31,216 nucleotides of DNA from a virus (IMGVR_UViG_3300024354_000052:1-31216); one strand, 5' to 3'; counted from the first letter of the stretch, positions 3,159 to 29,400 are shown. Made by a program: numbers and translations. The notes: generated by a model from the sequence alone, not told the origin.

Positions 3159-5489
3159 ATGGCCCTAGTACCCGGTCTCTCGCCTAACATTCGGATTCCA
3201 GCACCCGAGCCTGACGCCATGCCTGAGGCACAGGACGTCGTGGTAGAGGATGCCGATGAAGAGTCGGATATTCCGGAGTTCGACGATGCCGGGAACCTCC
3301 TCAGAATCGATCATCCAGATGGCAGCATCTCCATCAGCATCGACGGGTCGCCGCTAGCTAAGGCGCAGGACGCCAAGCCCACTGGCTGGTTCGACAATCT
3401 GGTAGATCAGATCGGCGAGATGGAGCTAAGCCGCATCAGTGAAGAGCTGTTGCGCGGCATCCGCGACGACATCACGAGCCGGAATGACTGGATTGAGGAC
3501 CGCGCGACGGGTCTTAAGCTGCTGGGTCTCAAGATCGAGATTCCGGGCTTGGGCGGTAGTGTCGAGGGCGCTCCGGTTGAAGGCATGTCCAAGGTGCGGC
3601 ATCCACTGCTGCTGGAGGCTGTGCTGCGCTTCCAGGCTAATGCACGTTCTGAGCTCCTGCCGACTGATGGGCCGGTCAAAGTGCGGAATGACGCGGTAAG
3701 GACCACGCTGCAGCAGAATGAGCTCGCCGATGCGCTGGAGAAGGACCTCAATCACTACCTGACGGCGATCGCCACGGAGTACTATCCCGACACGGACCGC
3801 ATGCTGCTGATGCTGGGATTCGGCGGCACGGCCTTCAAGAAGGTCTATTACTGCCCTCTTCGGAACCGGCCCGTCAGCGAGACCGTTGATGCCGAAGACC
3901 TGATCGTCAACAATGCGGCGACTGATCTTGAGAATGCGAAGCGCGTTACGCATCGCGTGTACATGCGCCCAAGCACTGTGAAGCGTCTGCAGATTCTCGG
4001 TGTCTATCGCGATATCGACCTCAGCGTACCCAACGCGCCGAATCTGGATAGCGTGCAGCGTGAGGAGATGGCGCAGCAGGGCATCGCACCTGAGACCATG
4101 AACCCGGATGACCGGGACCGCGAAATCTACGAGTGCTACTGTGAGCTCAATATTCAGGGTTTCGAGCACAAGTGGAAGGGCAAGGACACGGGTCTTGAGA
4201 TTCCGTATCGTGTGACGATCGATGTCTCATCGCGTAAGATTCTGTCCATCGTGCGGAATTACAATGAGGACTGCGAGCGTCTGCCCACCGCGCGCAGCAA
4301 CTTCGTAAAGTACACCTTTACACCCGGCTTCGGTTTCTACGATATCGGACTGTTGCACATCCTCGGTAACACCACCAATGCGGTGACCGCTGCGTGGCGC
4401 GAATTGCTTGACGCGGGTATGTACGCCAACTTCCCAGGCTTCCTGTTCGCCGATGCCGGTGCGCGTCAGAACACCAACATCTTCCGCGTACCTCCTGGCG
4501 GTGGCGCCCTGGTGAAGACCAACGGCATGCCGATCCAGCAGGCGATCATGCCGCTGCCGTACAAGGAGCCCAGTGGCGCTTTGATGTCGTTGGTGGAGAA
4601 TATCGCGCAAACCGGCATGCGGATCGGCGGCACCAGTGAAATGGTGGTAGGCGAAGGCAGGCAAGATGCGCCAGTCGGAACTACCCTCGCCATGATTGAG
4701 CAGGCGCAGAAAGTACTGAATTCGGTGCACAAGCGTCTGCACGCCTCGCAGGCACGTGAATTTCAGCTGTTGGTGGACTGCTTCCGTGAGCACCCGGAAA
4801 GCCTGTGGGAGCGCAATAACAAGTGCGTGGGCCAATGGGACGAGCAGACATTGGTGCAGGCACTGAACGACTGCGAATTGGTGCCGCAGGCTGACCCCAA
4901 CACAGCCAGCCACACCCAGCGTATCATGAAGATCATGGCGCTGAAGCAACTGCAGCAAGCGCAGCCTGGGCTGTACGACCCGATCGCCATCGACACGGCG
5001 GCGCTGCGTGCGATTGGCTGGAGCAATCCAGAGCAGTTCCTCGCGCCTCCGTCTGCCCAGGGCAAGCCGCCGCCCGAGCTTATGGAGAAAATGGCGAATC
5101 TCGAGATCAAGAAGCAGGATGCCGACACCCGAGCCAAGGTGGCGGATGCGAAGATTACCGAGATAGCCGCTAAGACGCAGCATCTGGCCACGGGCGGCAT
5201 GGCTGGGGAACCCGGTCTCGGTGCAGCTGAAGTGGACATCAAGGCCATGGATGCGCAGAACAAGGCCGAGCAGCTTCGGTTCTCGATGCTAAATGCTGCA
5301 GCCGATGCCGTGAACCGGGCTGAAGATCGTGATGCCGACATCAAAATCGAGCGCATGAAGCTTGAGCGTCAACGCATGAGGGACGCTGAGGATCGTGAGC
5401 ACGAGCGCGAGATGCAGGAACGTGAGCATCACCTACATCAGGCGAAACAGGTACTTGCCGCCATAACACGACAAGGTAAACCGCAATGA
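3159..5489 (+). CDS. Portal protein with long C-terminal helical/coiled-coil extension
   Basis: 776 aa directly after terL. Contains HPLLLEAVLRFQA, GTAFKKVYY, PGFGFYDIGL and PLPYKEPS motifs seen in podovirus-type portals, and a charged helical C-terminus. Confidence 0.9.
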   Translation: MALVPGLSPNIRIPAPEPDAMPEAQDVVVEDADEESDIPEFDDAGNLLRIDHPDGSISISIDGSPLAKAQDAKPTGWFDNLVDQIGEMELSRISEELLRGIRDDITSRNDWIEDRATGLKLLGLKIEIPGLGGSVEGAPVEGMSKVRHPLLLEAVLRFQANARSELLPTDGPVKVRNDAVRTTLQQNELADALEKDLNHYLTAIATEYYPDTDRMLLMLGFGGTAFKKVYYCPLRNRPVSETVDAEDLIVNNAATDLENAKRVTHRVYMRPSTVKRLQILGVYRDIDLSVPNAPNLDSVQREEMAQQGIAPETMNPDDRDREIYECYCELNIQGFEHKWKGKDTGLEIPYRVTIDVSSRKILSIVRNYNEDCERLPTARSNFVKYTFTPGFGFYDIGLLHILGNTTNAVTAAWRELLDAGMYANFPGFLFADAGARQNTNIFRVPPGGGALVKTNGMPIQQAIMPLPYKEPSGALMSLVENIAQTGMRIGGTSEMVVGEGRQDAPVGTTLAMIEQAQKVLNSVHKRLHASQAREFQLLVDCFREHPESLWERNNKCVGQWDEQTLVQALNDCELVPQADPNTASHTQRIMKIMALKQLQQAQPGLYDPIAIDTAALRAIGWSNPEQFLAPPSAQGKPPPELMEKMANLEIKKQDADTRAKVADAKITEIAAKTQHLATGGMAGEPGLGAAEVDIKAMDAQNKAEQLRFSMLNAAADAVNRAEDRDADIKIERMKLERQRMRDAEDREHEREMQEREHHLHQAKQVLAAITRQGKPQ

Positions 5490-8152
5490 GCGATACCGCG
5501 ATCAAGAATGCCCTAAGAGCTGCTGGTCGCAAGGATAAGCTCCCCCGTGATCCCGAGTCGCGCATGCGACGTGCGGAAGAGCAGGGCTTCACCGAAGATG
5601 TATATCACGTAACCAAGTCGCGTAAGCCTATCACGCGCTTCAAGCCCTACAGCAATCTGGTGACTTCGGGCGAGCCCATCGACGAAGTGCCGGGTATTCA
5701 TGTGGGCACCAAGGAGGCGGCGGCTGATCGCTTTGAGCAAGTGATCACGCACGCTCGCAATTGGGAACCGCGCGAGCCTGTTATGCAGACCATGCCGCTC
5801 AAAATGCGCATGAGCAAGCCATACTTGAAGGCAGACGGAACACCCTTTGATGAGTTCGAATTGAGCTCCCACATCCAGGATTTTGGTAGGAAGAATCCGG
5901 GTGAAGGTGTGCCGGGCGAACGGTTCGCTAAGCACTTGCTCGACCAAGGGCACGATGTGATTCCGTATGTGAATCAATTCGAGACTCCGGGCAGCATAAG
6001 CTACTTGGTGCTGAAGCCCGAAAATTTGCGTTCACGTTTTGCCCAGTTCGATCCGGCGAAGGTCGATAGCCCTTATATCATGAAGGCTGCGGGTGGCCCC
6101 GTTGACCATGACAAGGCAATTCGCAAAGCTCTACTCACTGCGCGTCGTCAGGCTGCGTATGGCGGAGCGTACGGCCCTGCAGGATACAGCGCCCCACTCA
6201 CTGAAGAAGAATTAGATCAGTCGCAAGCAGGTGGCGATGTTGGCCCAGGCATGGCTGGCCCTCCTGGCGCTCCTAGCACTGGCGATTTTGGTACTGATGT
6301 CGCCAGCTTCGCCGAAGCCACTGCGCCTGCGATGGCTGGTGCAGCAATCGGCGCTGCCATGGGTGGCCCTGCTGGTGCTATAGGCGGTCTTGCTGCTGCT
6401 TCCATGGCGCAGGGGCTTGCGGAAGCTACAGGGCTTTCGGCGCCTGCGAGCGCACCTCCTGGCGGAATTGCAAGTGTGGCGGGCAATATGGCTCAGACGG
6501 CCATGGGCATGACGCCAAACAGCAACCCGCTGGATGCGGCGATGGCTGCGATCACTGGACCCGCTGCTCCTGCTGATGTTGAGGATGCTGATCAGGGTGC
6601 TGCTCAAGCCGCTGCTGCAGCTGCAGCACAGGCTGCTGCCGAAGCCGATAACGCCAATTCAGCTTCCGAGGCTGCGACTGCCGATGCCGCTGGACCCGGA
6701 GACGATAGCGGTGGAGGCGAAGGAGGCGGCGATGGGGGTGGCGGAGGAGCGGGCGGCGATGGTGAAGCTCGTGGTGGGCGTATATACAAACGTGATGACG
6801 AGAATTTCTCGAAGTGGTTCAAAAATAGCCACATCGTAGATGAATCGGGCAATCCCGCTGTTCTGTATCACGGCACGGACAAAGACATTAAGACATTCGA
6901 CCCGAAAAAAGTCGGGGAAACCGATCACGGGTTTTATGGAGCGGGGCATTATTTGACCGCCAGCCCCGAGTCTGCATCTGCTTACTCCAGCTACAAGAGT
7001 ACAGCGGCTATGGAGGGAAAAGAGGTGCATCCGGGTGCAAATGTGATGCCCGTTTATGCGCGTCTTGAGAACCCTTATTACTGGCCCAAAGATCGCCCCG
7101 CTGCCACGAGTAAGGAAGAAGCCCAAAAGATAACAGAGGAGCTGAAGGCAAAGGGACATGACGGAGTTATAGCTCCGAATGAATATGCAGAGGGGCCAGA
7201 GGCTAAATTCTGGGAGGTGGTTGTGTTTACTCCTCACCAGATTAAGTCGGCTGTGGGGAACGTTGGCTCTTATAACCCTTCGAATCCGGATATAACCCGC
7301 GCCGATGGTGGTGCTGTTGACGGTGACCCGTTTTTGTCCAGTCAAGTGCCGATTGAGGGTGTGAACGGCGCCACGTATGTGTCGCAGGGTGATCTGGATA
7401 ACCGCATTCAGCAAGCCGCCAATGGAATGGGCTACGCTAATGGTGGCGAAGTACCCACCGAAGCCGAAAACACGTATGACGAAGAGCTTCGCCAGTCTGA
7501 TCCGTGGGAACGTCAAGCCGCTGCAGTACGGCAAAGATATGCAAATGTTGCTCGTGAACCCGAGCAAGCCCAAGAGCAGGCATGGCAAGAGCGTAATTGG
7601 CGCAGGTGGCCGCTAACCGAGGGTGAAGAGGCTTCGCAACGTGCTTTTCGGGAAGCTCTGGTGGGCAGTTCGAGCGGTGGTCGTGACGCTATTCGCCACA
7701 TGGTGGCCGCTTCATATACTTCGCCTCTGGTAGCGAGAGCGCAAGAGATAATCGGTGGCGATACTTGGAACGCCATGATGGGTCGTCCTGATTCTCAGTG
7801 GGACCTCATCAATAACCGATTGGGCTACACTGCGTTATCCGGAATAGACCCAGAGCGTCGATACGACGTGGCGAAAGACATGGTGAGACAGCAATATGAG
7901 CATTTGGCTCGCACGGGTGGTCTTAACCCCAATCTCCCGGCTATGGACCCTAACTTCCGCGTCACTGACGTGGGTCGTCCAGGCCAGCCAACGTATGGTC
8001 CAAGCGATTTTGCGCGTTGGATCGAGACTGGCGAAAGGCCGGATATCAGGCGGCAAGTAATTCAGAAATCGCCCGGATATGAATCCGGAGGTAAAACTGA
8101 ATCTACAGGAATGCTTGACGCGGCCTTGCGTTTGGCTTCAAAATATCGCTGA
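5486..8152 (+). CDS. Multidomain protein with two ART-PolyVal-like ADP-ribosyltransferase domains; probable internal virion/injected protein
   Basis: Domain 1 (~5540-6082): VYHVT...GIHVG...MPLKMRMSKP...GHDVI...NLRSRFAQFDP. Domain 2 (~6800-7297): LYHGT...GAGHYLT...VMPVYARLENP...GHDGVI...EVVVFTPHQIKSAVGNVGSY. Low-complexity linkers lie between. ATGA overlap with the portal stop. Confidence 0.75.
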   Translation: MSDTAIKNALRAAGRKDKLPRDPESRMRRAEEQGFTEDVYHVTKSRKPITRFKPYSNLVTSGEPIDEVPGIHVGTKEAAADRFEQVITHARNWEPREPVMQTMPLKMRMSKPYLKADGTPFDEFELSSHIQDFGRKNPGEGVPGERFAKHLLDQGHDVIPYVNQFETPGSISYLVLKPENLRSRFAQFDPAKVDSPYIMKAAGGPVDHDKAIRKALLTARRQAAYGGAYGPAGYSAPLTEEELDQSQAGGDVGPGMAGPPGAPSTGDFGTDVASFAEATAPAMAGAAIGAAMGGPAGAIGGLAAASMAQGLAEATGLSAPASAPPGGIASVAGNMAQTAMGMTPNSNPLDAAMAAITGPAAPADVEDADQGAAQAAAAAAAQAAAEADNANSASEAATADAAGPGDDSGGGEGGGDGGGGGAGGDGEARGGRIYKRDDENFSKWFKNSHIVDESGNPAVLYHGTDKDIKTFDPKKVGETDHGFYGAGHYLTASPESASAYSSYKSTAAMEGKEVHPGANVMPVYARLENPYYWPKDRPAATSKEEAQKITEELKAKGHDGVIAPNEYAEGPEAKFWEVVVFTPHQIKSAVGNVGSYNPSNPDITRADGGAVDGDPFLSSQVPIEGVNGATYVSQGDLDNRIQQAANGMGYANGGEVPTEAENTYDEELRQSDPWERQAAAVRQRYANVAREPEQAQEQAWQERNWRRWPLTEGEEASQRAFREALVGSSSGGRDAIRHMVAASYTSPLVARAQEIIGGDTWNAMMGRPDSQWDLINNRLGYTALSGIDPERRYDVAKDMVRQQYEHLARTGGLNPNLPAMDPNFRVTDVGRPGQPTYGPSDFARWIETGERPDIRRQVIQKSPGYESGGKTESTGMLDAALRLASKYR

Positions 8153-8226
8153 GGAGCTGCCCCTTATTCGCTGTGTTCTCATGGCAGCCCAGGGACGCCT
8201 GGACTATTTCTCCTAGGAGACCAGAT

Positions 8227-9474
8227 ATGACCGAACACGACGCAAAGAAAATCCGGGCGGACCGGGAGGCCAAGGCGAAGCGTCTTGGCTCCGCTGGTGA
8301 GCCGCATCAGAAGGTGGACGCGTCCTCTTGGACCCCACCGGAAATGATGAACACGGGGGCTAAGACGGGTCTTCGCCCTGTCTCGCCTCGTCAATACCGT
8401 CACGGGGGCACAGTGCATGGTGCAGCAGCCCATCGCGCTGATCGCAAGCCCCGCAAAACGGGCGGCGAAGCCACCAAGTACGCCGAAGCGAAGGTCAATC
8501 GCAACGTTAAGGAGGCCAATGCTGAACTCGGCAAGCCTCACGTGGGCGGCATGAAGAAGGGTGGCCGCGCGAAGAAGATGGACGGCGGTCAAATGACCGA
8601 TCCGAGGATGGCCGCGCAGGCCCTGATGGCCGCTGCGAATCGTCAAGCGAATGTGACGCCGAATCGTATGGACTTCAGTGGCCTTCGTCGGGGCCGTATG
8701 GCCCAGATGGCGGGGCTGAAGAAGGGCGGCAAGGTCAGCCATATGGAGTGGGAACACTCCAAGGCCGATCTTGAGCAGGACAAGAAGCTCGCCAAGAAGC
8801 ATGGTATGAGCATGGAGAAGTGGGAGAAATCCGCTCTCGATGCCAAGCACGACAAACAGCAGTCCACTGAAGGGCTGAAGAAGGGTGGCGTTGCCGGTAA
8901 TTACACTGGCGGCACCCGCCCGACTGGTGGCCGGATTGCAAAAGCTTCTGGTGGATATACCAAAGAAGCAATGCTGAAGCCCGGTGTATTAGATCAAATG
9001 GTTAAAAATGCTGAAAATGACGACGAGCTTCGTAAAATTGCTCGCGCCGTTGAAAAGCACGGGCTTTCTATGCCCCAGCAATTATCCGATGTTTCTACGG
9101 GCCGCATGGGCCGCAAGGCCGGTGGCCGCGCCAAGGGCAAGACCAACATTGTCATCGCCATCAATCCGGGTGCTGGTCAGCAACCCATGATGCAACCCGG
9201 TGGCGGTGCTATGCCTCCGCGTCCCGCGATGCCGGTTCCCGTGGCGCCTCCCGCGCCTCCTCCGGGTATGGGCGCGGCTCCTATGCCAATGCCGGTCCCG
9301 ATGCCCGTCCCGGCCCCTTCCGCAGGCCCCGCGCCTATGCCGGGCGGTATGCCTCCGATGGCTCGGGCCAAGGGTGGCCGTATCTATCCCAAGATGCGCG
9401 CTGGTGCCGGTAGTGGTGAAGGGCGGCTGCAGAAGATCGACGAGTATGGTCTGACGCCGCCTCGTCGGATTTGA
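8227..9474 (+). CDS. Basic low-complexity protein with many (K/R)xGG motifs and a Pro/Met-rich tail; putative internal head protein
   Basis: ATG 8227 with an AGGAGA RBS; located in the head module; composition. Confidence 0.7.
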   Translation: MTEHDAKKIRADREAKAKRLGSAGEPHQKVDASSWTPPEMMNTGAKTGLRPVSPRQYRHGGTVHGAAAHRADRKPRKTGGEATKYAEAKVNRNVKEANAELGKPHVGGMKKGGRAKKMDGGQMTDPRMAAQALMAAANRQANVTPNRMDFSGLRRGRMAQMAGLKKGGKVSHMEWEHSKADLEQDKKLAKKHGMSMEKWEKSALDAKHDKQQSTEGLKKGGVAGNYTGGTRPTGGRIAKASGGYTKEAMLKPGVLDQMVKNAENDDELRKIARAVEKHGLSMPQQLSDVSTGRMGRKAGGRAKGKTNIVIAINPGAGQQPMMQPGGGAMPPRPAMPVPVAPPAPPPGMGAAPMPMPVPMPVPAPSAGPAPMPGGMPPMARAKGGRIYPKMRAGAGSGEGRLQKIDEYGLTPPRRI

Positions 9475-9479
9475 TTTCG

Positions 9480-9591
9480 TCGGAGAGTTCTTTCTTATAA
9501 GAATCTCCGATGGAAGGGGGGTGGAGACGTTATTCCCCTATCGATCTCCACCCCTCAGATTACTAAATAGGGGGCAGCAATAGGGGGCTGC
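9480..9591 (+). promoter_or_regulatory. Structured intergenic leader (two long hairpins and a possible pseudoknot with the RBS)
   Basis: Stems TCGGAGA/TCTCCGA (9480-9510) and GGGGTGGAGA/TCTCCACCCC (9518-9554). Loop CCCCTAT is complementary to two ATAGGGG copies downstream. Confidence 0.55.
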
Positions 9592-9593
9592 AT

Positions 9594-9803
9594 GTGCTTA
9601 CCAACGCTATTCTCTTCGAGAGAGAGCTTAAGAAATTGGTCGAGGAAGAAATCGACCGGCTAAAAGAAAATCTAGTCACCGTGCCTTCCAATATGGTGGG
9701 CCCTGGTGGCATCGAATACCTTCAAGGCGCTATATCTGCGCTTCGAACGGTAGGTGATCTGATTGAACTCGCCAAGACGAAATCGGATCAAAGTTCACGA
9801 TGA
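9594..9803 (+). CDS. Small hypothetical protein (69 aa, helical)
   Basis: AGGGGG RBS; amphipathic helices with a 'YLQGAISAL' motif; fills the gap before the GroES-like gene. Confidence 0.7.
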   Translation: MLTNAILFERELKKLVEEEIDRLKENLVTVPSNMVGPGGIEYLQGAISALRTVGDLIELAKTKSDQSSR

Positions 9804-9816
9804 AAAGGGGAAAACA

Positions 9817-10212
9817 ATGCCATTTATGACTATGGAGCATTCCGTGGATCCAGCCAAGGCTATCAACGAAGCCTTGGGGGATGGCATCGAGAATACTCGC
9901 ATCTTTAACAACCAAGTTCTGGTGGCCGTTTACGTGCGACCAAAGAAGACCGCTAGCGGTATTTATCTTCCGGACGCTGTGTCTGATGAGGATAAATATC
10001 AGGGCAAAGTGGGTCTGGTGGTCGCAAAAGGCCCTACGGCCTTTGTTGACGACGAAGGAAACTGGTTCAAAGACGTCTCTGTCGATGTGGGAGATTGGGT
10101 CATTTTTAGGCCCTCCGATGGATGGAGCATCACGATCAACAATGTATTGTGTCGAATCATCGACGATACACTGATTCGTGGCAAAATCGATCGTCCGGAC
10201 AGGGTATGGTAA
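9817..10212 (+). CDS. groES: GroES/Cpn10-like co-chaperonin
   Basis: NQVLV...KKTASGIYLP mobile loop, GLVVAKGP and VDVGDWVIF motifs. ATG 9817 with an AAGGGG RBS. Confidence 0.85.
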   Translation: MPFMTMEHSVDPAKAINEALGDGIENTRIFNNQVLVAVYVRPKKTASGIYLPDAVSDEDKYQGKVGLVVAKGPTAFVDDEGNWFKDVSVDVGDWVIFRPSDGWSITINNVLCRIIDDTLIRGKIDRPDRVW

Positions 10213-10223
10213 AGGAGATCACG

Positions 10224-11105
10224 ATGTCAGAGAAAGAAGAAATCGAAGTAACTATCGATGAAGTCGAAAAGAACGACAAGGGTGCTGATTCTGAAATACG
10301 GGTAGAAGCGGAAGCGGAAAAGCCGTCTGCTCCTACCCTTGAAACCAGTATTGAAGACCTTCGTCGTCAAATCGAAGAAGAGCGTCAAGCTCGACTTGCT
10401 GCTGAAAAGCGTGCTGCCGAATTGAGCAGCACAGCTGCGAAGGCGCAAGAAGAAGTCGATAAGTCGTATTACCAAATCGTCACCAATGCTATTGATACTG
10501 TTAAGAGGGAAACCGATATCCTCAGAAACAGCTACAAGGTGGCGATGGAGACTGGTGACTTTGACCGGGCCAGCCAAGTTCACCTTGAAATGAATCGACT
10601 GATTTCCAAGCTTGATCAGCTTGAGAATGGTAAAATAGCGATGGAGGAGAAGCAGCAGAATCGCGCCCCCATCCAGCCGATTCAGCATAGCGATCCTGTC
10701 GAGCAGATGGCTTCCAATCTGTCCGAAAAGTCAGCAGCGTGGGTCAGGGCGCATCCCGAGTACGCTCGTAATCCTGCTCTGACACAAAAAATGATTGCTG
10801 CGCACCAATTTGCTATTGCAGATGGACTTGCCGCAGATACTCCGGAGTATTTCAATACTGTAGAAAGACTTCTTGGAATATCTAATGAATCCTCTTCGGC
10901 AATGTCTTCAGCCTCAGAGCCGATTCAAAGGCGTTCAGCCCCGGCTGCGGCGCCTGTTTCAAGGTCCGGAACGGCTAACGGGACTCGGCCCAATGTTGTT
11001 AGGCTGACTTCGGAAGAGCGTGAAGTGGCCCAAATGATGGGTATGTCTCCCGAAGAATACGCTAAGAACAAACTGGCACTCAAGAGAGAGGGGAAAATAC
11101 ATTGA
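10224..11105 (+). CDS. Probable capsid scaffolding protein
   Basis: Acidic N-terminus, coiled coil, and C-terminal 'VRLTSEEREVAQMMGMSPEEYAKNK' helix pair; upstream of the capsid gene. ATG 10224 with an AAGGAG RBS. Confidence 0.75.
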   Translation: MSEKEEIEVTIDEVEKNDKGADSEIRVEAEAEKPSAPTLETSIEDLRRQIEEERQARLAAEKRAAELSSTAAKAQEEVDKSYYQIVTNAIDTVKRETDILRNSYKVAMETGDFDRASQVHLEMNRLISKLDQLENGKIAMEEKQQNRAPIQPIQHSDPVEQMASNLSEKSAAWVRAHPEYARNPALTQKMIAAHQFAIADGLAADTPEYFNTVERLLGISNESSSAMSSASEPIQRRSAPAAAPVSRSGTANGTRPNVVRLTSEEREVAQMMGMSPEEYAKNKLALKREGKIH

Positions 11106-11683: not shown

Positions 11684-11690
11684 AAAGCCT

Positions 11691-11718
11691 TGGGGAGAGT
11701 GTTCATTCACTCTCCCTA
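11691..11718 (+). terminator. Hairpin, possible terminator
   Basis: TGGGGAGAGTG/CACTCTCCCTA stem immediately after a stop codon; weak U-tract. Confidence 0.45.
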
Positions 11719-11748: not shown

Positions 11749-11753
11749 AAAGC

Positions 11754-11815: not shown

Positions 11816-11843
11816 AACGGCGCTTTCAATCGGAGGACGTTTC

Positions 11844-12473: not shown

Positions 12474-12487
12474 GGAGGGCATGAACC

Positions 12488-13921: not shown

Positions 13922-14230
13922 ATGAAGGGTCGTAAGCATCGCGCAAGCGGCGGTAGGATGGATTCTCCCGCTGTCGGCACAAAAGAGTACGAACAGGATC
14001 TGGCCTCCAAGCCGGAACGTCGCGTGAATGCGCCCAAAATTATGGGTGCTGCTGAAGAGCGCAAGCGCGGCGGCAAGGCTATGGGCAAGATTCACGGTGC
14101 TGCTGCCAAGGCTCATGCGGGTCGCAAGCCCCGTAAGTCTGGTGGCCGGGCTGGTTCCAATATGAACCCGCTCTCCAGCGCCCATGCTGGCACCCCTGCA
14201 AAGGGTCGTCACACAGTCGAAATCGACTGA
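13922..14230 (+). CDS. Small basic protein with three RxxGG motifs
   Basis: AGGAGG RBS; RASGG, RKRGG and RKSGG; shares a segment with 8227..9474. Confidence 0.75.
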   Translation: MKGRKHRASGGRMDSPAVGTKEYEQDLASKPERRVNAPKIMGAAEERKRGGKAMGKIHGAAAKAHAGRKPRKSGGRAGSNMNPLSSAHAGTPAKGRHTVEID

Positions 14231-19628: not shown

Positions 19629-21206
19629 ATGCCATTTAGCTCTGAATCGGGAAAGGCCAGCATTGCCTGGGCTTTAGCCCGCATACCTGTTCCAAAAACC
19701 GCATTAGATATTGGATGCGGTCAAGGCACCTACGCCAAGATGTTCCCAAAGCTCCAATGGACTGGGGTGGAAATCTGGGAACCATACGTCGAAAAATACG
19801 GTCTGACAGACCTGTACCCCAGTCTTCAAATTGCCGATGTCCGTGAATGGGATACGGATGAGCATTTTGACCTGTGCTTCCTGGGTGATGTGCTGGAGCA
19901 TATGCCGGTAGATCACGCCATGGAATTGGTAGAAAGGGCCAAGCGCTGGGCTGATACGGTGGTGATCAGCATCCCGCTTGGGCATTACCCGCAGGGTGAA
20001 TATGAGGGCAATCCATATGAGGCGCATGTCACTGACAATTGGACCGATGCCGATGTAAGGCAGGCATTTGGTGTGCCTACTTGGTTTGATATCGATGGCG
20101 AAATTGGCGTTTACATCTATTCCAAGTATGAAGTGCGGCTGAAAATCGCCGTCTATGCGATCAGCAAGAACGAAAAGCACTTTGTTGAGCGGTTCTGCAA
20201 TTCGGCCAAGGATGCTGATGTTATTCTGATTGCAGACACTGGAAGTGATGATGGCACCGCAGAAGAAGCAGCACGCTGCGGGGCTGCTGTGGCCAATATT
20301 TCCATCAATCCGTGGCGGTTTGACCATGCCAGAAACGCCACCCTGGCGCTTTTGCCGCGTGATATTGATGTCTGCATCAGCCTTGATCTTGATGAGATGA
20401 TGGAACCCGGCTGGCGGGAAGAAATTCAGCGCGTTTGGACGCCCAGAACGACCCGTTTGCGGTATTACTTTGATTGGGGTGCAGGTATCCGGTTCAAATA
20501 TGAGAAAATCCACGCCCGCAAGGGATATTTCTGGCACCATCCATGCCATGAATACCCGGTTGCGGATGGCCGGATCACTGAGGTTTGGGCCGATACTGAC
20601 ATGCTGTTGGTCAGCCACCACCCAGACCCGACCAAAAGCCGTGGCCAATATCTTGATCTGCTGGCTTTATCGGTCAAGGAAGACCCGCATTGCCCGCGTA
20701 ATGCGTTCTATTATGCCCGCGAGCTTACTTTCAATTACCGCTGGCATGATGCGATCGCCGAATTGCGCCGATATCTGGCTTTGCCGGGCGCCACATGGCC
20801 GAATGAGCGGTGTTATGCTTACCGTCTGCTTGGAAAGGCCCATGGTGAGCTTGGCGATCTTTGGCAATCCGAGAAGTACTACCAGCTTGCCGCCAGTGAG
20901 GCTCCAAACACTCGTGAACCCTGGTGCGAGCTTGCGCTGTTGTATTACCGGCAGAGCCGCTGGCCCGATTGCTATGCGGCTGCCATGCGGGCCTTGGAAA
21001 TTAAAGACAAACAACTGGTCTATACCTGCGATCCTGCTGTCTGGGGCCATTGGGCGCATGATCTGGCATCCATTTCAGCTTGGAACATGGGCATGAAGGA
21101 CGTAGCCATGGAGCAGGGAAGATTGGCTTTAATGCACTCGCCAGATGATCCTAGATTGCAGGCAAATGCGGCTTTTATGGCCGGGGTTCAACAAGAGGCT
21201 GCGTGA
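19629..21206 (+). CDS. Fusion of class I SAM methyltransferase, GT2 (GT-A) glycosyltransferase and TPR domain
   Basis: ALDIGCGQG and GDVLEHM (MTase); IAVYAISKNE, IADTGSDDGT, FDHARN and SLDLDE DxD (GT2); C-terminal helical repeats (RNAFYYAREL..., AYRLLGKAH..., EPWCELALLYY...). Confidence 0.9.
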   Translation: MPFSSESGKASIAWALARIPVPKTALDIGCGQGTYAKMFPKLQWTGVEIWEPYVEKYGLTDLYPSLQIADVREWDTDEHFDLCFLGDVLEHMPVDHAMELVERAKRWADTVVISIPLGHYPQGEYEGNPYEAHVTDNWTDADVRQAFGVPTWFDIDGEIGVYIYSKYEVRLKIAVYAISKNEKHFVERFCNSAKDADVILIADTGSDDGTAEEAARCGAAVANISINPWRFDHARNATLALLPRDIDVCISLDLDEMMEPGWREEIQRVWTPRTTRLRYYFDWGAGIRFKYEKIHARKGYFWHHPCHEYPVADGRITEVWADTDMLLVSHHPDPTKSRGQYLDLLALSVKEDPHCPRNAFYYARELTFNYRWHDAIAELRRYLALPGATWPNERCYAYRLLGKAHGELGDLWQSEKYYQLAASEAPNTREPWCELALLYYRQSRWPDCYAAAMRALEIKDKQLVYTCDPAVWGHWAHDLASISAWNMGMKDVAMEQGRLALMHSPDDPRLQANAAFMAGVQQEAA

Positions 21207-21670: not shown

Positions 21671-21671
21671 C

Positions 21672-22187
21672 ATGGATGGAATTCTGAACCTTGTCCGTAC
21701 GGTCGCGCCGACCATCGCCAGTGCGGTGGGCGGTCCTCTGGCGGGAATGGCCACCAGGGCCATTTCAGAAGCCCTCCTTGGCAAGCCTGACGGGTCTGAG
21801 CAGGAGCTTGCCGATGCTGCTGCCAGGGCCACCCCAGAGCAGCTATTGGCCTTAAAAAACGCTGAAAACGACTTTGCCGTCAAAATGCGAGAATTGGACA
21901 TTGATCTGGAACGGATTGCCAATCAGGACCGCGATTCGGCCCGTAACCGTGAGGTTCAAACCAAAGACTGGACGCCGCGCGTTTTGGCAGGGCTAATTAC
22001 AGTCGGGTATTTTGGTGTTCTGTTTTACATGCTTCGCAATGGCCTCCCGCAGCATGGTGGTTCTGAGGCTATGTTGGTGATGTTGGGAACCTTGGGGACG
22101 GCCTGGGGCGGGGTCGTTGCCTACTATTTTGGCTCTTCGGCTGGCTCAAAAGCCAAAGATGAGGTTATACGTAGAAACACAAGGTAA
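21672..22187 (+). CDS. Holin (3TM GTA-holin-like)
   Basis: VAPTIASAVGGPLAG, DRDSARNRE, two C-terminal TM helices and YYFGSSAGS. Confidence 0.7.
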   Translation: MDGILNLVRTVAPTIASAVGGPLAGMATRAISEALLGKPDGSEQELADAAARATPEQLLALKNAENDFAVKMRELDIDLERIANQDRDSARNREVQTKDWTPRVLAGLITVGYFGVLFYMLRNGLPQHGGSEAMLVMLGTLGTAWGGVVAYYFGSSAGSKAKDEVIRRNTR

Positions 22188-22216
22188 TTGTGTTCGAAAT
22201 TCAAGATGTTTATAGT
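22188..22216 (+). promoter_or_regulatory. Possible promoter for the tail/ejection operon (TTGTGT-17nt-TATAGT)
   Basis: Shares ATGTTTATA(A/G)T with the promoter at 11719-11748. Confidence 0.4.
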
Positions 22217-22239
22217 CCTATCGGAAGAGGGCTTCTTCG

Positions 22240-22959
22240 ATGACCACAGGGCTTACGTATTCCCAGTATGTGACGGAGATCGCCACCCTGGCGGTCGTTC
22301 CGGAGACTGACCCTAATTTCGTAGAAATTCTACCGCAGATGATCACCTATGCGGAAAACCGCATTTACCGTGATCTGGACTTGCTTGAAACGGTAACTTC
22401 GGTCAGCAGCTATACCACAACCCAGAATGGCCGGACGATAACCTTCCCGATTGCCGATTTTATCACGGTTCAAGAAGTAAACGTGATCACTCCTGCCGGG
22501 ACCACCATTCCAAATGATGGCACTCGCACAGCCCTTCTGCCGGTCACCAAGGAATGGATGAATTATAACTATGTCAGCAGCGCTTCGGCTGGCGTTCCAT
22601 TCTATTTTGCCATGTTCAACCAGAACACGCTCATTCTTGGCCCATGGGCTGATAATACTTACACGGTTGAAATTGTTGGCACTTTCCGGCCTGATTCGCT
22701 TTCAGCCACCAATACGTCAACCTTTGTTTCGCTTTATCTGCCCGACCTGATGATCATGGCCTCCATGATCTATATCAGCGCCTTCCAGCGCAACTTCATC
22801 TCGGCTGCTGCCAATGACCCGCAGATGCCGGTGAATTATGAAACGCAGTATCAGACGCTGTTGAAGAGCGCGATGGTGGAAGAGGCGCGGAAGAAGTTCC
22901 AATCCTCGGGCTGGACTTCGATGTCGCCTGCTCCTGTCGCTTCGCCGACCAGGGGCTAA
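22240..22959 (+). CDS. Tail adaptor/tubular protein (second adaptor-like gene)
   Basis: ITYAENRIYRDL, GVPFYFA, ILGPWADNTYTVE and YLPDLMIMAS motifs; directly before the nozzle gene. Confidence 0.65.
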   Translation: MTTGLTYSQYVTEIATLAVVPETDPNFVEILPQMITYAENRIYRDLDLLETVTSVSSYTTTQNGRTITFPIADFITVQEVNVITPAGTTIPNDGTRTALLPVTKEWMNYNYVSSASAGVPFYFAMFNQNTLILGPWADNTYTVEIVGTFRPDSLSATNTSTFVSLYLPDLMIMASMIYISAFQRNFISAAANDPQMPVNYETQYQTLLKSAMVEEARKKFQSSGWTSMSPAPVASPTRG

Positions 22960-22962
22960 CAG

Positions 22963-25077
22963 ATGCCGCACGCCACCCTCAAATTGATCCCTGGCGTCGA
23001 TCAAAACCGCACCCCGGCTTTGAACGAGGCTGCGCTTTCGGAAAGCCAGCTTATTCGGTTTGTGCCAGATCGGCAGGGGATTGGTTTGCCGCAAAAGCTT
23101 GGCGGGTGGACCCGGTATTATCCCGATTCATTGGGCGCAACGCCAAGGGCTATGTTGGCTTGGCAAGATACCAATGGTGACAAGTTCCTGGCTGTTGGAT
23201 GTGAAGCTCAAGCTTCAATCATAAGCCCTCCGCCTGGGGCGCCGATTTATGTTATATCCAATGGGAATGCGAAGAATTTAGTGCCGCAGGTTGATCGGCA
23301 CGATGTGGCCGTTGATGTAACCACGACTACCTCCTCAAATGAAATTGTTATTGAGGATACCGGAAGCAATATCACTAATTATGATTCTGTTTTTGTTCTC
23401 ACGCACATCGCAGTTGGGGGCATTATTGTTTTTGGGTTTTTTAGGACTTATCAAATAGGCGCAAACACTTACAATATTTATTTGGTTGATGCCCTTGGTA
23501 ATCCTCTTATTCCTTTATCTGCTGTGGCGAATGGCGGCGCCGTTGCCGAATTTGACACCACGAATGGGTCTTCGGTTGTAAATGTAACGCTTGCCAATCA
23601 CGGGTATTCTGTTGGGGATACTTACCCTGTTTTGATTTCTACTGCGATTGGTGGTGTTACGCTCTTTGGCAACTATGTTGTCACGGAGGTTATCAATGCC
23701 AATGAATTCTCAATCAATGCGCCGAATGCTGCTACCTCCACGGCAAATGCTTTCATTAATGGTGGAGATGCTGCTTACAATTACTATTATGCCTTTGGCC
23801 CTCTTACTGTCGGTAGTGGCTATGGCGTTGGTGGTTATGGCGTTGGCGGCTACGGCTCTGGCATTACTCTTTCTCCAGCCACCGGAGATGAGCTTGTTGC
23901 GTCGGACTGGACGCTGGACAATTGGGGTGAAATCCTAATTGCCTGCCCCAATGGTTTGACTTTTGGTGCTGCCGTTTCCGATCCTCTTGGCGGCCCTATT
24001 TATCAATGGGATCCGCATACCAATTCGCCTTCATTAAATGTGATCCCAGAAGCTCCTGTAGCTAATGCTGGTATTTTTGTGGCGATGCCGCAGCGCCAGA
24101 TCATAGCTTGGTCATCGACCTTTAATGGTGTTCAAGACCCTCTTTTGATCCGCTGGTGCGACGTTGAGAACTTCCAGCAATGGACGCCCTTGATCACCAA
24201 TCAGGCTGGTTCCTATCGCATCCCGAAGGGGTCAAAGATTGTTGGTTGTATCCAGGGACCGCAGCAGGGCTTGGTTTGGACTGATTTGGCCTTGTGGGCC
24301 ATGCAGTATGTTGGCCAGCCCTATGTCTATTCCTTCAATGAAATTGGCACCGGGTGCGGGCTGATCGGCCCCAAGGCTGCTGCATCATTGAATGGCATGG
24401 TTTACTGGATGTCTCAAAGCCAGTTCTTTATGCTTTCGCCGAATGGCGTGCAGCCAATTCAATGCCCAGTCTGGGATGTGATCTTTCAAGATTTGGATAC
24501 GTCAAGCTTGGATAAAATTCGGGTTGCCGTGAATTCTCGGTTTAATGAGATTTCATGGTTTTATCCGACTGTTGGGAATGGCGGTGAAATCAATTCTTAT
24601 GTGAAATACAATGTCGGCTTGAACCAATGGGATTTTGGAACGCTTTCTAGGACGGCTTGGATCAATCAATCTGTTCTTGGGCCACCTATCGGTGCGACGC
24701 CTGAAGGCTTGATCTATCAGCATGAAACCTCGCCTAATGCTGATGGAGCGCCGATGAATTCTTATTTTCAGACAGGCTATTTTGTCCTTTCTGATGGTGA
24801 TGTGTTGACCTACATTGACCAGTTCTGGCCGGATGCCAAATGGGGTTACTATGGTGGCACTCAGGACGCCAACCTGCTTTTGACCTTCTATGTGCTGAAT
24901 TATCCTGGCGATACTCCAAAGGTCTATGGGCCTTATGATGTGGTCCAGGCGACTGAGTATATTGTGCCGCGTTTCCGTGGTCGCTTGGTGTCGATCAGGA
25001 TTGAAAGCAACGACATCGATTCATTCTGGCGTATGGGCGCTATGCGCTATCGTTTTGCTCCTGACGGGAAATTCTGA
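22963..25077 (+). CDS. Tail nozzle/packaged DNA stabilisation protein (P22 gp10 or T7 gp12-like beta-propeller)
   Basis: 704 aa; QKLGGW, WTLDNWGE, LLIRWCD, GTGCGLIGP, EISWFYP and RFRGR...WRMG...PDG motifs. Confidence 0.75.
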   Translation: MPHATLKLIPGVDQNRTPALNEAALSESQLIRFVPDRQGIGLPQKLGGWTRYYPDSLGATPRAMLAWQDTNGDKFLAVGCEAQASIISPPPGAPIYVISNGNAKNLVPQVDRHDVAVDVTTTTSSNEIVIEDTGSNITNYDSVFVLTHIAVGGIIVFGFFRTYQIGANTYNIYLVDALGNPLIPLSAVANGGAVAEFDTTNGSSVVNVTLANHGYSVGDTYPVLISTAIGGVTLFGNYVVTEVINANEFSINAPNAATSTANAFINGGDAAYNYYYAFGPLTVGSGYGVGGYGVGGYGSGITLSPATGDELVASDWTLDNWGEILIACPNGLTFGAAVSDPLGGPIYQWDPHTNSPSLNVIPEAPVANAGIFVAMPQRQIIAWSSTFNGVQDPLLIRWCDVENFQQWTPLITNQAGSYRIPKGSKIVGCIQGPQQGLVWTDLALWAMQYVGQPYVYSFNEIGTGCGLIGPKAAASLNGMVYWMSQSQFFMLSPNGVQPIQCPVWDVIFQDLDTSSLDKIRVAVNSRFNEISWFYPTVGNGGEINSYVKYNVGLNQWDFGTLSRTAWINQSVLGPPIGATPEGLIYQHETSPNADGAPMNSYFQTGYFVLSDGDVLTYIDQFWPDAKWGYYGGTQDANLLLTFYVLNYPGDTPKVYGPYDVVQATEYIVPRFRGRLVSIRIESNDIDSFWRMGAMRYRFAPDGKF

Positions 25078-25079
25078 CC

Positions 25080-25436
25080 ATGGCGAGCCTTGACGATATC
25101 GCAACCATCCAGAAGAACGGCGTTATTGCCGTCAATACAGTAAATCAGACGCTTCAGCGCATTTATGGCTCCAACACCTCTGCCACGGCTTCGGCCAATA
25201 CGCTGGTGTTTACTGGGCCGGGCAGGCTGATCAATGTGTCTGTGACGGTTGCTGGCACCACGGCTGGGGCTATTCACAACAGCAACACGGTTGCCGGGGT
25301 TTCTGCCGCCAATAAGCTTGCCACGATTGGCAATACGGTAGGGGTCTTTCCGATGAACCTGCTGTTTACCAATGGGCTGGTGATCGTGGTCGGCACCGGC
25401 CAGGAATTGAACGTCACCTATTCGGTGGGGGCATAG
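25080..25436 (+). CDS. Hypothetical virion protein (118 aa)
   Basis: Tightly packed ORF with a beta-rich C-terminus. Confidence 0.7.
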   Translation: MASLDDIATIQKNGVIAVNTVNQTLQRIYGSNTSATASANTLVFTGPGRLINVSVTVAGTTAGAIHNSNTVAGVSAANKLATIGNTVGVFPMNLLFTNGLVIVVGTGQELNVTYSVGA

Positions 25437-25438
25437 CC

Positions 25439-25975
25439 ATGCCGTTGAAACGTGGGAAATCCCAGGCCGCGATTAGTGCCAACATCAGCGAAATGCTCCA
25501 TGCTGGTCACCCGCGCGACCAAGCAATTGCGGCTGCTCTAAATACGGCCAGACGATCGGCTACCGGCGGAGCTCAGAATTCCGAAAATGCATCTACCCTA
25601 GGTAAGGTATTTTCCGGTGCCATTATGAGCCCGGTTGCCGGGCGTACTGATCATTTGCCTATTCATGTACTTTCGGGGTCTTACGTGATCCCAGCCGATA
25701 TCGTGTCAGCTATGGGAGAAGGCAATACTGCCGCTGGCTTTAAAGTAGCCAAAGCTATATTCACTTCTCCTCAACAGCGGTACCCCTCTGCCGATTCGGA
25801 GACAATTCCGGTCATCGTGGCGGGTGGCGAATTTATTCTAACTCCCGATGACGTTATACGAATCGGTGAAGGATCGATGGAAGACGGGCACAAAATCTTG
25901 GACGAATTCGTCAAAGCTTATCGGGCTAAAACGATAGAAACGCTGAAGAAGCTACCCGGTCCTAAACAAAACTGA
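25439..25975 (+). CDS. Hypothetical protein: N-terminal basic helical motif, ATGG, and a duplicated 'D/E-x-I/L-P...G-E/S-F/Y-V/I' module
   Basis: MPLKRGKSQAAISANISEM...DQAIAAALNTARRSATGG; TDHLPIHVLSGSYVIPADIV and SETIPVIVAGGEFILTPDDV. Confidence 0.7.
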   Translation: MPLKRGKSQAAISANISEMLHAGHPRDQAIAAALNTARRSATGGAQNSENASTLGKVFSGAIMSPVAGRTDHLPIHVLSGSYVIPADIVSAMGEGNTAAGFKVAKAIFTSPQQRYPSADSETIPVIVAGGEFILTPDDVIRIGEGSMEDGHKILDEFVKAYRAKTIETLKKLPGPKQN

Positions 25976-25986
25976 TAGGGGAAAAT

Positions 25987-26472
25987 ATGAGCAACATTAA
26001 AGTTAGAATAGGGACGGCGGAAGACGTTCACAACGTCATGGACTTAGCTATGATGGCTTGCGATGAAAACGGATTCGTTGCTCCTAAGCCAGAAAAGCTG
26101 CTACAAGAAATATGGCCAGCTCTAAACCTTAATCGCGGGATTATGGGATTGATCGGAGAGGACAATGGGCCGTTAGAAGCGGCTATTCTTCTTCGCACGA
26201 CTGTGTTATGGTATTCGGACGAACAAGTCTTGGAGGAACGAGCCATATTTGTTCATCCAGAATTTCGAAGCGCCAAAGGGGGCAGAGCTGCCCGTCTTTG
26301 CGAGTTCGCCAAGTCTGTGGCTGATGGGCTCAATTTACCTTTGATGATAGGCGTATTGAGCAACAGCCGCACAACTGCTAAAATACGAATGTATGAACGC
26401 CAATTCGGCGATCCTGCTGGTGCCTTCTTCCTGTACAAAGCTCGTACAGGGGGATGGAAAGAAGCAAATTAG
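25987..26472 (+). CDS. GNAT-fold acetyltransferase-like protein
   Basis: KVRIGTAEDV start and IFVHPEFRSAKGGRAARL (motif A-like); located before the ejection gene, like T7 gp13. Confidence 0.65.
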   Translation: MSNIKVRIGTAEDVHNVMDLAMMACDENGFVAPKPEKLLQEIWPALNLNRGIMGLIGEDNGPLEAAILLRTTVLWYSDEQVLEERAIFVHPEFRSAKGGRAARLCEFAKSVADGLNLPLMIGVLSNSRTTAKIRMYERQFGDPAGAFFLYKARTGGWKEAN

Positions 26473-26499
26473 AGCTTACCTCTCTGTAAGGACCCGACC

Positions 26500-29400
26500 A
26501 TGAGCGGTGGCAAAGGCGGCACTACTACACAGTCCTCAACGGTATCGATCCCGCCTGAGGTCTTAGCTAGGTACAATGCGGTCAACGCTCGTGCCGAGCA
26601 GGTTGCTCAGCAGCCATTTACACCTTATGGTGGTCAATTCGTTGCTCCTCTTACCCAGACGCAACAGGCTGGCATTGCAAATGTGAACCAAGCAGCCGGT
26701 GCTGCGCAGCCTTACTACAGCGCTGCCGGTACTGCCCTGCTAGGCGGCGCGGCTCAGGCGCAGCCCTATTATCAGGCTGCCACGCAGGGTCTTTATGGTG
26801 GTCAAGCCGTCGCTGCTCCATTGCAGCAGGCTGCTGCAGCCAACATCTATGGCGCTCAAGCTGGCGCACAACCCTATCAGGCTCTGGCTACTGGCTATGG
26901 GTTAGCTGGCGCACGACAGGTAGCACCGGGCGGCTTGAATGTTGGCGCGTATATGTCGCCTTATACCGAAGCCGTGGCGCAGCCGACCTATCAGGCTTTG
27001 CGGCAGCAACAGGAACAAGAACGTCAGCGCATTCTCGGTGAACAAATCCGGGGTGGCGCTTTCGGCGGCGATCGCGGCAAAATCGCTCAAGCGACCCTGG
27101 CGCAGCAGCAGAACCTTGCAACCGCCCAGGCTCTTGGGAACATCTATCAACAGGGCTATGGACAGGCGCTTGGAGCAGCCCAGCAGCAACAAGGCGTTGC
27201 CTTGGCGGCTGAACAGGCCAACAGGCAGGCGCAGCAGCAGGCGGCTCAGCAGTTCCTCGGTATTGGCCAGCAGGGCTTCGGCCAAGGCATGACCGCTGCC
27301 CAGCAGCAAGCAGCGTTAGCACAGCAGCTCTATGGGCAGGGCGCCACCACGGCGCAGCAGGCGGCTGCTCTCGGTCAGGGCTTGTATGGCATCGGTGCTG
27401 GTGTCAGCCAAGGGTTGGCTGGTCTTGGCGCGGGCGCGCAACAGGCCGCTATTCAAGGCGGTCAAGCGCAGCTTGGTGCTGGTCAAATCGAACAGCAGAC
27501 CCAGCAGGCACAGAACCAAGCGCTATATAATCAGTTCCTGCAGCAGCAGGGCTACCCGTTCCAGGTTGCGCAGTTCCTGGCAAACATCGCCATGGGTACA
27601 GGTGCTTTGTCTGGTTCGACCACACAAGCGACTACCACTCAGCCCACTTCGTTCTTCTCGGATGAAAGGCTCAAACACGGCATTGAGCCCATCGGTAAGA
27701 CTTATGATGGTCAAGAGATCGTGCGGTTTAAGTACAAGGGTGAACCCGGTACTCGAATCGGCCTAGTCGCACAAGATGTCGAACATAAGCACCCAGAGGC
27801 GGTCGGTCTGGCGGGCGGATTTAAAACAGTCGATTATGAGCGCGCCACAGACGATGCAGCTAATCGTGGCCACTTTGCCCGAGGCGGTCTAGCATACCAA
27901 TCCGAAGGTGGGGCGGTTCATCCTGAGTCGGCGGGACTCGGATTCGCTGACGGCGGCGGAGCTGATTACAATCGCGCGCTAGCTGAACTTCTGACGTCGC
28001 ATCAGAACATGTTTCCGTATGGCCGACAGGGCCTGTATGGTTCTTCAAGTGGTCGCGGCGGTCCGTATGGAATAACTTTATCTAATCCACAAGCGCGACA
28101 GCTGATGCAAGCTAGACTTGTTGAAGCAAAGCCTCAGCCTTCTACTGCTCAGTCGTTGGAAAGTGGCGTAAGGTCAGCTGAAAATATTCAAAGAGCCTAT
28201 GGGGTGGGTAAGGGCTTGGGAAGTGCTGCTGAGTCAGCGCTATTCGGGTCCCCTGGCCAAGCAAATGCCACGGGTAATTTGCAGGGTCGCACCCAAGGCT
28301 TGGTGGGTGCAGGCGGCACATCGTCTCAACCCGGAGCGATAGAGTCAGGCATCAATTATCTTCGTAATCTGGTGTCGGGTTCTTCCGAGCCTAGCGCTAT
28401 GCCTGCGCCAGTCACTGTCGAAAACCTTCCTCCGATCGAGAGTGCTCGAGGTGGCGCTATTCGGCAAGGTCTTGCCGTGGGGGGTCTCCCTTATAGCGAA
28501 GCCGAAGACGAGTATGTCCCTGAGGACTTGTCTAAGCCCATTACGCCTCAGACGCTGCAGCCAGCTCAGCTTAGCCAACCGAGTAAACAAAAGAGCGGCT
28601 TCGAGAGCACTCTGGATATGGCCAAGACTGCCGCCATGATTTATGGCATGACTGGCTCTGATCGTCGGATGAAAGACAACATCGAGCCGATCGGCAAATT
28701 GTTCGATGGTCAGCAAGTGTATCGGTATAACTACAAGGGTGAGCCCGAAAAGCAAATCGGCTTAATGGCGCAGGATGTCGAGAAGAAGCACCCTGAGGCA
28801 GTCGGTTTAGTCGCTTTTACCAAGCGCCACGGGTATGAGCGGGGCGGTAATCCCGATGTGCCAGAAGAATGGCTGCCGGTTCTTGAAGGTGCCTCCCGCA
28901 GTTCTGGTATTCCATCGCATCTTCTTTCAGCCGTTGGCGCTGTCGAGAGCGATTATGGTCGTAACCCTCGTGGACGCGATAATCCGATGCAGATTATCGA
29001 AAGCACGGCCCGCGATCCTGGGTACGGCGTACAGCCACTGGCTCTGGAAGATCGAGCACGTATCGACGCAGCTATTCCGTGGGCTGCTAATTACATCGCT
29101 GCGCGTAATCCGAACGTTGACTGGTCCAATTTGAGCAGGCCAGAAATCGCTCGACGCATATCCGAAACGTACAATGCGGGCGGTGATCCCAATTACGCAG
29201 AGCGTCTTATTCGGCGTCTTCCGGGTGTGACCGAAGAAGAAATCGCAGCGGTACGCGCAGCGAATGCCCAGGGGACGTCTGGTGGCCTCGCCGGTCAGGC
29301 ACAGCCCCCCGGTTCCTACGGGGCTCCGCCTTCTTATCTCACTCAGTTAGCTGTGCGTTATCTTCAGCCGCCCCAGCGCGAAGAGCGCGATTGGATGCAG

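Follow-up and report, generated by a model that had tools for sequence, protein, structure and literature searches.

A recurrent x-A-x-G-G motif at module borders of predicted internal virion proteins in a short-tailed aquatic phage, and its possible role as a maturation cleavage site

Introduction

Does a short glycine-containing motif that recurs between the domains of several predicted virion proteins mark the places where these proteins are cut? The question is raised by IMGVR_UViG_3300024354_000052:1-31216, a viral contig of 31,216 bases (the window, meaning the whole stretch that was analyzed). It carries a head-to-tail operon of a short-tailed phage, comprising terminases, an SU10-type portal, GroES, a Mu gpT-like capsid protein, adaptors, a collagen fibre, a nozzle, an acetyltransferase and an ejection polyprotein. 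The operon and its parts described below are on the + strand. An initial annotation, made from the sequence alone, had noticed xxxGG pentapeptides at domain borders in six proteins. We find that the motif is almost certainly real and placed at module joints. That it is a maturation cleavage site, cut before Ala or Lys and probably by the GE domain of a protein that we call p178, is a reading to which we give an even chance.

The window capsid protein matches that of MW202675, the closest complete relative (81 annotated proteins), at 91%, and those of cultured phages, including Pelagibacter HTVC023P, Roseobacter CRP-901, MinM2 and Caulobacter RW, at 33–41%. Patterns derived from the capsid match about 1,600 IMG/VR stretches, and the phage group is very abundant and aquatic. 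For comparison, 35 related loci were gathered via p178 and 80 via the capsid.

Results

A selected motif in cargo, core and ejection proteins

The pentapeptides that had been listed are all in frame, on the + strand and correctly placed, and GGRIY is indeed common to two proteins, p888 (6764) and p415 (9364). The motif was redefined with a held-out matrix, obtained by unsupervised expectation maximization from 422 GG contexts in 53 dereplicated post-portal proteins of relatives only; the ten top runs gave one solution, [YFRK]-[AK]-x-G-G-x-[VI]. At a match threshold of 3 bits, the matrix matches 17 of the 65 GG sites in p888, p415, p102 and the ejection polyprotein taken together: 5/22 in p888 (0.21 expected), 6/15 in p415 (0.15 expected), 3/3 in p102 (0.05 expected) and 3/25 in the ejection polyprotein (0.28 expected, p=0.003). 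None of the 46 GG sites in the remaining 27 window proteins is matched, including all four in the capsid protein. Across 78 of the 81 MW202675 proteins, 21 of 22 matrix matches fall in the equivalent slots and one in a primase-helicase. A loose version of the initial pattern yields 20 matches in six proteins against 4.2 expected (maximum 13 in 2000 shuffles), and 2 against 2.7 expected in the remaining 25 proteins; this set of six was chosen after the motif had been seen, which makes the loose test circular and the matrix test not.

Synonymous codons are mixed at 460 unique motif sites, save that the codon of the first Gly is GGC or GGT in 96%, GGA and GGG being avoided. Selection therefore acts on the protein, and a DNA-level recombination site is ruled out by this codon usage. 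Enrichment is confined to cargo, basic-core and ejection proteins, and the stretches between motif copies are where modules come and go. These findings support a selected protein-level signal at the module borders of predicted internal virion proteins. We found no description of such a motif in phages in the literature covered, most subscription journals lying outside that coverage.

Not every listed pentapeptide belongs to the system. The portal site LATGG (5184..5198) scores 2.3 bits, but none of 15 portal homologues has a scoring site in its last 130 amino acids (aa); it is probably a chance occurrence and is left out. In the ejection polyprotein, LAVGG (28471) scores below -3 and SARGG (28441) scores -1.6.

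The cargo polyprotein p888 (5486..8152) occupies the variable post-portal slot and carries five motifs. It consists of an ART-like domain 1, a low-complexity linker, an ART-PolyVal domain 2 and an unnamed C-terminal module. Domain 1 (aa 5–199; 5498..6082) resembles ART-PolyVal only in a local profile match of its C-terminal piece (E 9e-6). As had been proposed, it is closed by a motif: the domain ends at aa 199 and KAAGG (6083..6097; 5.4 bits) follows directly, with a predicted cut at K200|A201 whose register is borrowed from phage T5. Bracketing of domain 2 (PF18760, aa 452–595; 6839..7270; Pfam E 1.9e-21, above cut-off) likewise held, EARGG (6764..6778; 7.4 bits; followed by RIY) opening it and RADGG (7298..7312; 8.9 bits) closing it. 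YANGG (7433..7447; 9.0 bits) and YESGG (8078..8092; 6.7 bits) follow, the latter preceding the C-terminal helix. In the same register, the predicted bonds at these four sites are E427|A428, R605|A606, Y650|A651 and Y865|E866. We also observed that domain 1 reads YHVT (5525-5560) where domain 2 reads YHGT; it may be inactive or diverged.

The motif-dense p415 (8227..9474; net charge +37), a predicted internal core protein, has nine sites in the initial annotation and six at or above 3 bits, and the small p102 (13922..14230), also basic (net +14), has three. Motif positions are conserved in 23 aligned rows for each protein (of 35 and 25 available). A separate observation is that the peptide after the last p415 motif (9385-9450) makes up most of an 83-aa gene in the distant MinM2 (L119:3211-3462).

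The ejection polyprotein (26500..31216) runs off the contig. It contains two S74 chaperone domains and, after 28834, a transglycosylase-like domain, which does not reach the cut-off in the window (SLT, E 0.026) and is clear in the MW202675 orthologue (E 4e-26). The motifs of the polyprotein lie at 27874, 27898, 27943 and 28834, with the weak one at 28441. The claim that motifs follow S74 domains was borne out: a motif lies 55–95 aa beyond the S74 start in 13 of 17 cases. Both S74 domains (27658-27870 and 28657-28830) are of a self-cleaving type and each is closed by a motif; they would therefore be excised on both sides.

Modules begin and end at the motif

In 15 relatives, the post-portal slot holds unrelated proteins of 65–1856 aa, in which InPase, ART-PolyVal, GP88, LPD23, DUF7178 and unnamed modules lie between motifs. 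The post-portal and p178 slots alike contain ART-PolyVal, GNAT and other modules flanked by motifs. In p178 homologues, cargo is inserted between the first motif and the core; one such protein (P0126) carries, between motifs, a homologue of ART-like domain 1 of p888. Like phage polyvalent proteins, the chains combine several unrelated effector domains, differ between relatives and are encoded near head genes.

We quantified this arrangement in 92 proteins, masking all GG contexts equally and recording where BLAST matches between shared modules end. Of 257 shared-segment ends, 68 lay within 15 aa of a motif on the expected side, against 17.3±3.8 at random; at 371 other GG sites, 40 ends were found against 29.9±5.1, at most a marginal excess. 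Modules of homologues thus do start and end at the motif, as the initial annotation would have it.

A short amphipathic helix, A-I-x-x-A-L-x-x-A-R, recurs at cargo-chain termini and shortly ahead of the first motif in p178 (5486-5530, 6110-6150, 8105-8150 and 25515-25555), and is a possible docking element separate from GG. The 'AL-x-x-A' pattern, noticed by eye, was poorly recovered: in 2/53 C-termini, 7/53 N-termini and 10/14 p178 homologues.

A mapped cut and a resolved fragment suggest probable cleavage before Ala

The tape measure pb2 of phage T5 is cut after R1127, as mapped by mass spectrometry (Linares 2023, PMC10038345; this and the other papers given by PMC number are cited from the accessible portions of their text). 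Its residues 1128–1131 are A-E-G-G, the best-scoring of the five GG sites of pb2 and kept in 28/28 close T5 relatives. This is the one experimentally mapped cut at such a motif; it falls directly before A-E-G-G, hence before Ala, and leaves GG on the prime side.

The crAss001 cargo protein C1 (gp45) is resolved at residues 425–552 on the portal and 214–245 in the tail, 420 Å apart (PMC10172136, in the portion cited). The portal-bound piece begins at the Ala of an A-F-G-G, residue 425, and each of the two pieces has motifs on either side. C1 has seven x-A-x-G-G motifs by pattern and two to three matrix matches (p 0.018–0.006); neither 'cleav' nor 'protease' occurs in the main text of that paper.

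Lambda gpH is converted to gpH* and gpHC by a cut near its C-terminus, whose site and enzyme are described as unknown (PMC12617516, 2025). Only two matrix matches occur in gpH, at A734 and A779, and both are in the cleaved region. The T5 and lambda papers, in the portions available, name no motif or enzyme, and those of the phi24B preprint and the DT57C paper report no motif-linked cut. For JBD30, a cut at 1066 is a prediction only and a 'hook' is predicted at 1022–1066 (PMC11445458); the hook covers the same tape-measure region as the lambda-type domain described below, and the paper states that no peptidase motif was identified.

T5 and C1 keep GG on the downstream piece, which does not fit the GG|X rule of adenovirus and African swine fever virus (ASFV). 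The register suggested at first was therefore probably wrong, and a cut would fall three residues upstream of the proposed place. If the chains are cut at all, a cut before Ala is very likely.

p178 carries two copies of a GE domain

The candidate reader or protease is p178 (25439..25975), which consists of a two-helix module (phrog_2423, aa 1–44), the motif SATGG (25556..25570) and two copies of a small domain without an established name, here termed the GE domain. The initial annotation took p178 for one more tagged protein. Its SATGG scores below -3 but holds a conserved position, being the site of cargo insertion in homologues, with G44 invariant in 70 of them; p178 itself is better read as a candidate reader or enzyme. 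Repeat 1 (25604..25762) has an invariant R-T-D-H (74/74; D71 at 25649) and a Ser at the position of the Glu, and repeat 2 (25799..25951) has the invariant Glu131 (25829). x-A-x-GG stands upstream of the repeats in 176/239 (repeat 1) and 189/239 (repeat 2) homologues; repeat 2 of the window has lost its motif. In AlphaFold models, the repeat is a small beta-beta-alpha-alpha unit.

Profile comparison links the two p178 repeats to each other (89%) and, by HHalign, to a single-domain family with MinM2 gp22 as its type (97%, E 4e-10 and 2e-11). That family in turn matches the domain between the two lambda gpH motifs (85%, E 6e-6), and repeat 2 matches the lambda domain directly with E 2.6e-4 and a probability of 42%. 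p178 thereby shares with the lambda gpH-type domain both profile homology over a G-E-[FY]-V core, via the single-domain family, and an A-x-G-G just upstream (SATGG before repeat 1). A joint profile also finds two tape measures that it was not built from, PDB 8zdo (E 1e-10) and 8rk3 (E 0.016), and the lambda-type domain is matched by 1,092 phage records. The Glu is invariant in lambda-type (32/32), single-domain (33/33), repeat 2 (121/121) and crAss-type (24/24) rows, counts that are partly circular, as all rows were chosen by Glu-containing patterns; Glu131 is also invariant in the unselected 70-row alignment. Judging from these sequences, the T-D-H of repeat 1 and the Glu of repeat 2 could form one composite site.

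Other searches returned little. PDB sequence searches with p178 alone or with its own alignment found nothing, and Foldseek gave no match at E<=0.001 for two AlphaFold models. The best VIA-align hits had Z 5.6, over the N-terminal helices only, and Z 3.2; no fold was named, C1 was not listed, and the result does not speak for a new fold.

Unrelated phages also carry the N-terminal module of p178 (25439-25570), which is a candidate for capsid targeting; in Acinetobacter phages, it overlaps or adjoins genes annotated as head maturation protease. About 20 GTDB genomes of unrelated bacteria (L283-L304) have stretches 98–100% identical to lambda gpH, mostly on short contigs; these are probably control-DNA contamination.

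Two neighbouring features are recorded here. A phage GroES gene (9817-10212) lies inside the head module of the window and of most relatives gathered, and a methyltransferase-glycosyltransferase-TPR fusion (19629-21206) lies amid the tail genes, where it possibly modifies virion proteins.

Discussion

A model of cleavage by the GE domain

We propose that the tagged proteins would be packaged, as their gene positions and their polyvalent and ejection domains suggest, and that the chains would be cut at x|A-x-G-G during assembly, giving pieces of 8–800 aa that are stored and ejected separately. In tape measures, the GE domain would act in cis after its own motif; in the window phage, it would act in trans on all tagged chains. 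It may recognize a prime-side A-x-G-G-x-V strand and use the invariant Glu, perhaps together with Asp71 of the other repeat. The shuffling of modules would follow, since insertion between two motifs would be enough for any domain to be loaded and set free. We hold cutting of the chains in the virion to be likely; that the GE domain is the enzyme is a sequence-based candidacy, evenly balanced.

Several observations weigh against this model. No cuts have been seen in this phage or in any podophage. The T5 site scores only 1.6 bits and is a single site in a siphophage, and the T5 fragment has instead been credited with a muralytic metallopeptidase motif (cited in the accessible part of PMC10038345). 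The A425 site of C1 scores -23.5 in the matrix, A425 could simply mark the start of a fold, and the authors assume one continuous threaded chain (PMC10172136, as far as its text is available). A lambda gpH cut at 734 would give 79.8 and 12.5 kDa, an approximate fit to the roughly 78 and 14 kDa stated in the portion of PMC12617516 cited. Lys replaces Ala at 178 of 221 p415 sites and 47 of 52 p102 sites. When the GG contexts are left unmasked, 36 of 307 ends lie at motifs against 20.5±4.4 (maximum 35), a much smaller excess, probably because alignments run through the motif.

The GE domain meets difficulties of its own. No second catalytic residue is common to all GE families, and the motifs of a p178 homologue are modelled by AlphaFold with a predicted local distance difference test score under 50. 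The crAss domain matches the lambda domain weakly (E 0.03 over 10 columns) and p178 not significantly; a single T5 sequence is not significant against any profile. The links of T5 and crAss to p178 are links of pattern only. p178 has no match to PF25725, with no Pfam family at E<=0.01 and a C1 control at E 1e-66; searching crAss001 gp22–50 with a p178 hidden Markov model (HMM) gave gp45 at E 1.9. An Atlas feature score of 0.85 for the link to crAss C1 is a lead only.

Co-occurrence of domain and motif points in two directions, in a panel that is small, related and partly confined to structural regions. No motif enrichment was seen in any of seven phage records in which the domain is not detectable (CRP-901, QDWS535, PK1, MW202796, vir526 and the structural regions of P22 and T7), and CRP-901 keeps the p178 gene slot with neither domain nor motif there; the HMMs also miss the T5 domain, which weakens such calls of absence. 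Only two of seven domain-positive records are enriched genome-wide: HTVC023P, MinM2, RW, crAss001 and lambda are not above shuffles, and their motifs stand mainly beside the domain; in gp66 of RW, MARGG comes immediately ahead of it.

Alternative explanations

The strongest competitor to cleavage by the GE domain is a docking or loading tag, a short strand bound by the GE domain, the portal or a scaffold, with the chains packaged whole. The C1 domain, including its A-F-G-G, is ordered on the portal wing (PMC10172136, portion cited), tandem copies 3–8 aa apart and the 9–13 copies in p415 suit avidity, residue choice at -3 and -2 is broad, and Val at +2 takes part in a beta-bridge in the model. 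A single tag per chain would suffice for docking, yet copies flank module joints on both sides, and docking leaves unexplained why T5 is cut exactly at the motif and why pieces of C1 are found on opposite sides of the portal; we regard a tag of this kind as rather unlikely. The initial proposal of a protease site or docking signal survives as a selected border signal, and its adenovirus and ASFV specifics are not supported, given that the T5 cut precedes Ala. The cysteine-protease version of that proposal, in which a clan CE or C39-like enzyme would cut behind GG on the model of adenovirus, ASFV and virophages, is the least probable of all readings. In its favour, basic virion peptides associated with DNA are known to be cleaved at GG|X (PMC6048507, accessible part), and p415 and p102 are basic; against it, T5 and C1 keep GG downstream, and the C39/C48/C5-like protease expected from it gave no hit in the 31 window proteins or in 54 of the 81 MW202675 proteins. 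Families C5, C48, C57, C63 and C39 were not found with Pfam and PHROGs in the 31 window proteins, a partial genome, or with NCBIfam in 20 proteins or segments.

Cleavage at the motif might also be the work of a different enzyme, either a protease of the host or a SprT-like phage zincin, the GE domain being a structural cap. MW202675 encodes a stand-alone SprT-like HEXXH protein upstream of terS (L117:1571-2209, E 1e-9), zincins have been proposed as processors of polyvalent proteins (PMC5512222, section 8), and a 1973 report, to judge by its title, implicates the host in the cleavage of T5 tail proteins. Searching 131 loci and the window by tblastn, with the region in question lying outside most of these loci, gave no further match to the SprT-like gene; there is no HEXXH in the 31 window proteins, and motif and GE domain adjoin each other in unrelated hosts. 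We consider cleavage by such an enzyme improbable. Still less probable is that nothing reads the motif, which would then be a hinge or an inherited seam: a turn-forming linker that travels with modules or serves recombination. Linkers often contain GG, the codon of the first Gly is strongly biased to GGC or GGT, and tandem copies resemble duplication remnants. The other synonymous positions, however, are near background and the bias at the first Gly would fit avoidance of an internal GGAGG; positions -3, -2 and +2 are conserved within otherwise unalignable linkers; and the boundary excess at non-motif GG sites is slight at most.

Implications

Tentatively, and with the balance against it, we suggest that a so far undescribed family of small Glu-dependent peptidases cuts x|A-x-G-G across tailed phages. 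Tape measures, among them those of lambda, T5 and many of the 1,092 records, would be cut in cis; in HTVC023P-type podophages and crassviruses, the peptidase would work in trans, carried on a cargo protein bound to the portal. If true, the motif would serve as a plug-in grammar by which effector modules are loaded and released, the missing site and enzyme of lambda gpH cleavage would be named, and the presence of crAss001 C1 on both sides of the portal would be explained. The predicted bonds are exact: F733|A734 and Y778|A779 in gpH, and N424|A425 in C1; one residue, the Glu of the GE domain (E756 in gpH), is singled out for mutation. Two open questions, the lambda gpH cut and the crAss001 cargo chain found in capsid and tail, thereby become testable, and the motif gives a means of dividing polyvalent cargo proteins into their modules.

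Comparison with known systems

T4 gp21 with its capsid targeting sequence, phiKZ gp175 and SPN3US gp245 are serine prohead proteases that cut after Glu. In these phages, as proposed for the window phage, a short code directs one protease to many internal head proteins; no prohead protease family was found in the window. Adenain, ASFV pS273R and mavirus MVP (clan CE) likewise act on basic internal proteins with a GG-containing signal. They are cysteine proteases that cut after GG, whereas GG is probably on the prime side in the window system. On the tests run, nothing places this system with the clan CE systems, and p178 does not match PF25725.

The polyvalent proteins (Iyer et al. 2017, PMC5512222, in the portion available) share the cargo domains ART-PolyVal, InPase, GNAT and LPD23 with the proteins described here, as well as a variable architecture and a proposed proteolytic release. 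Their proposed processors are zincin metallopeptidases, which are absent from the window; neither a zincin HEXXH (31 window proteins) nor MuF (Pfam) was found, both being common in the polyvalent class and not obligatory. The words 'glycine' and 'tape measure' do not occur in the main text of that paper.

crAss001 C1 (gp45; PDB 7QOG; PF25725) is, as here, a cargo protein of small modules between x-A-x-G-G motifs, and its portal-bound domain, which includes G-E-V, has a motif at its start. Unlike p178, it belongs to PF25725, and its authors assume the chain to be uncut. T5 pb2 and lambda gpH are, as predicted for the proteins of the window, ejected virion proteins that are cut during assembly, T5 pb2 at x|A-x-G-G; in gpH, two motifs bracket a domain homologous to the p178 repeats. 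In T5 and lambda, one or two sites in cis serve a siphophage tail protein, whereas the window phage has at least 17 sites in four podophage head or ejection proteins.

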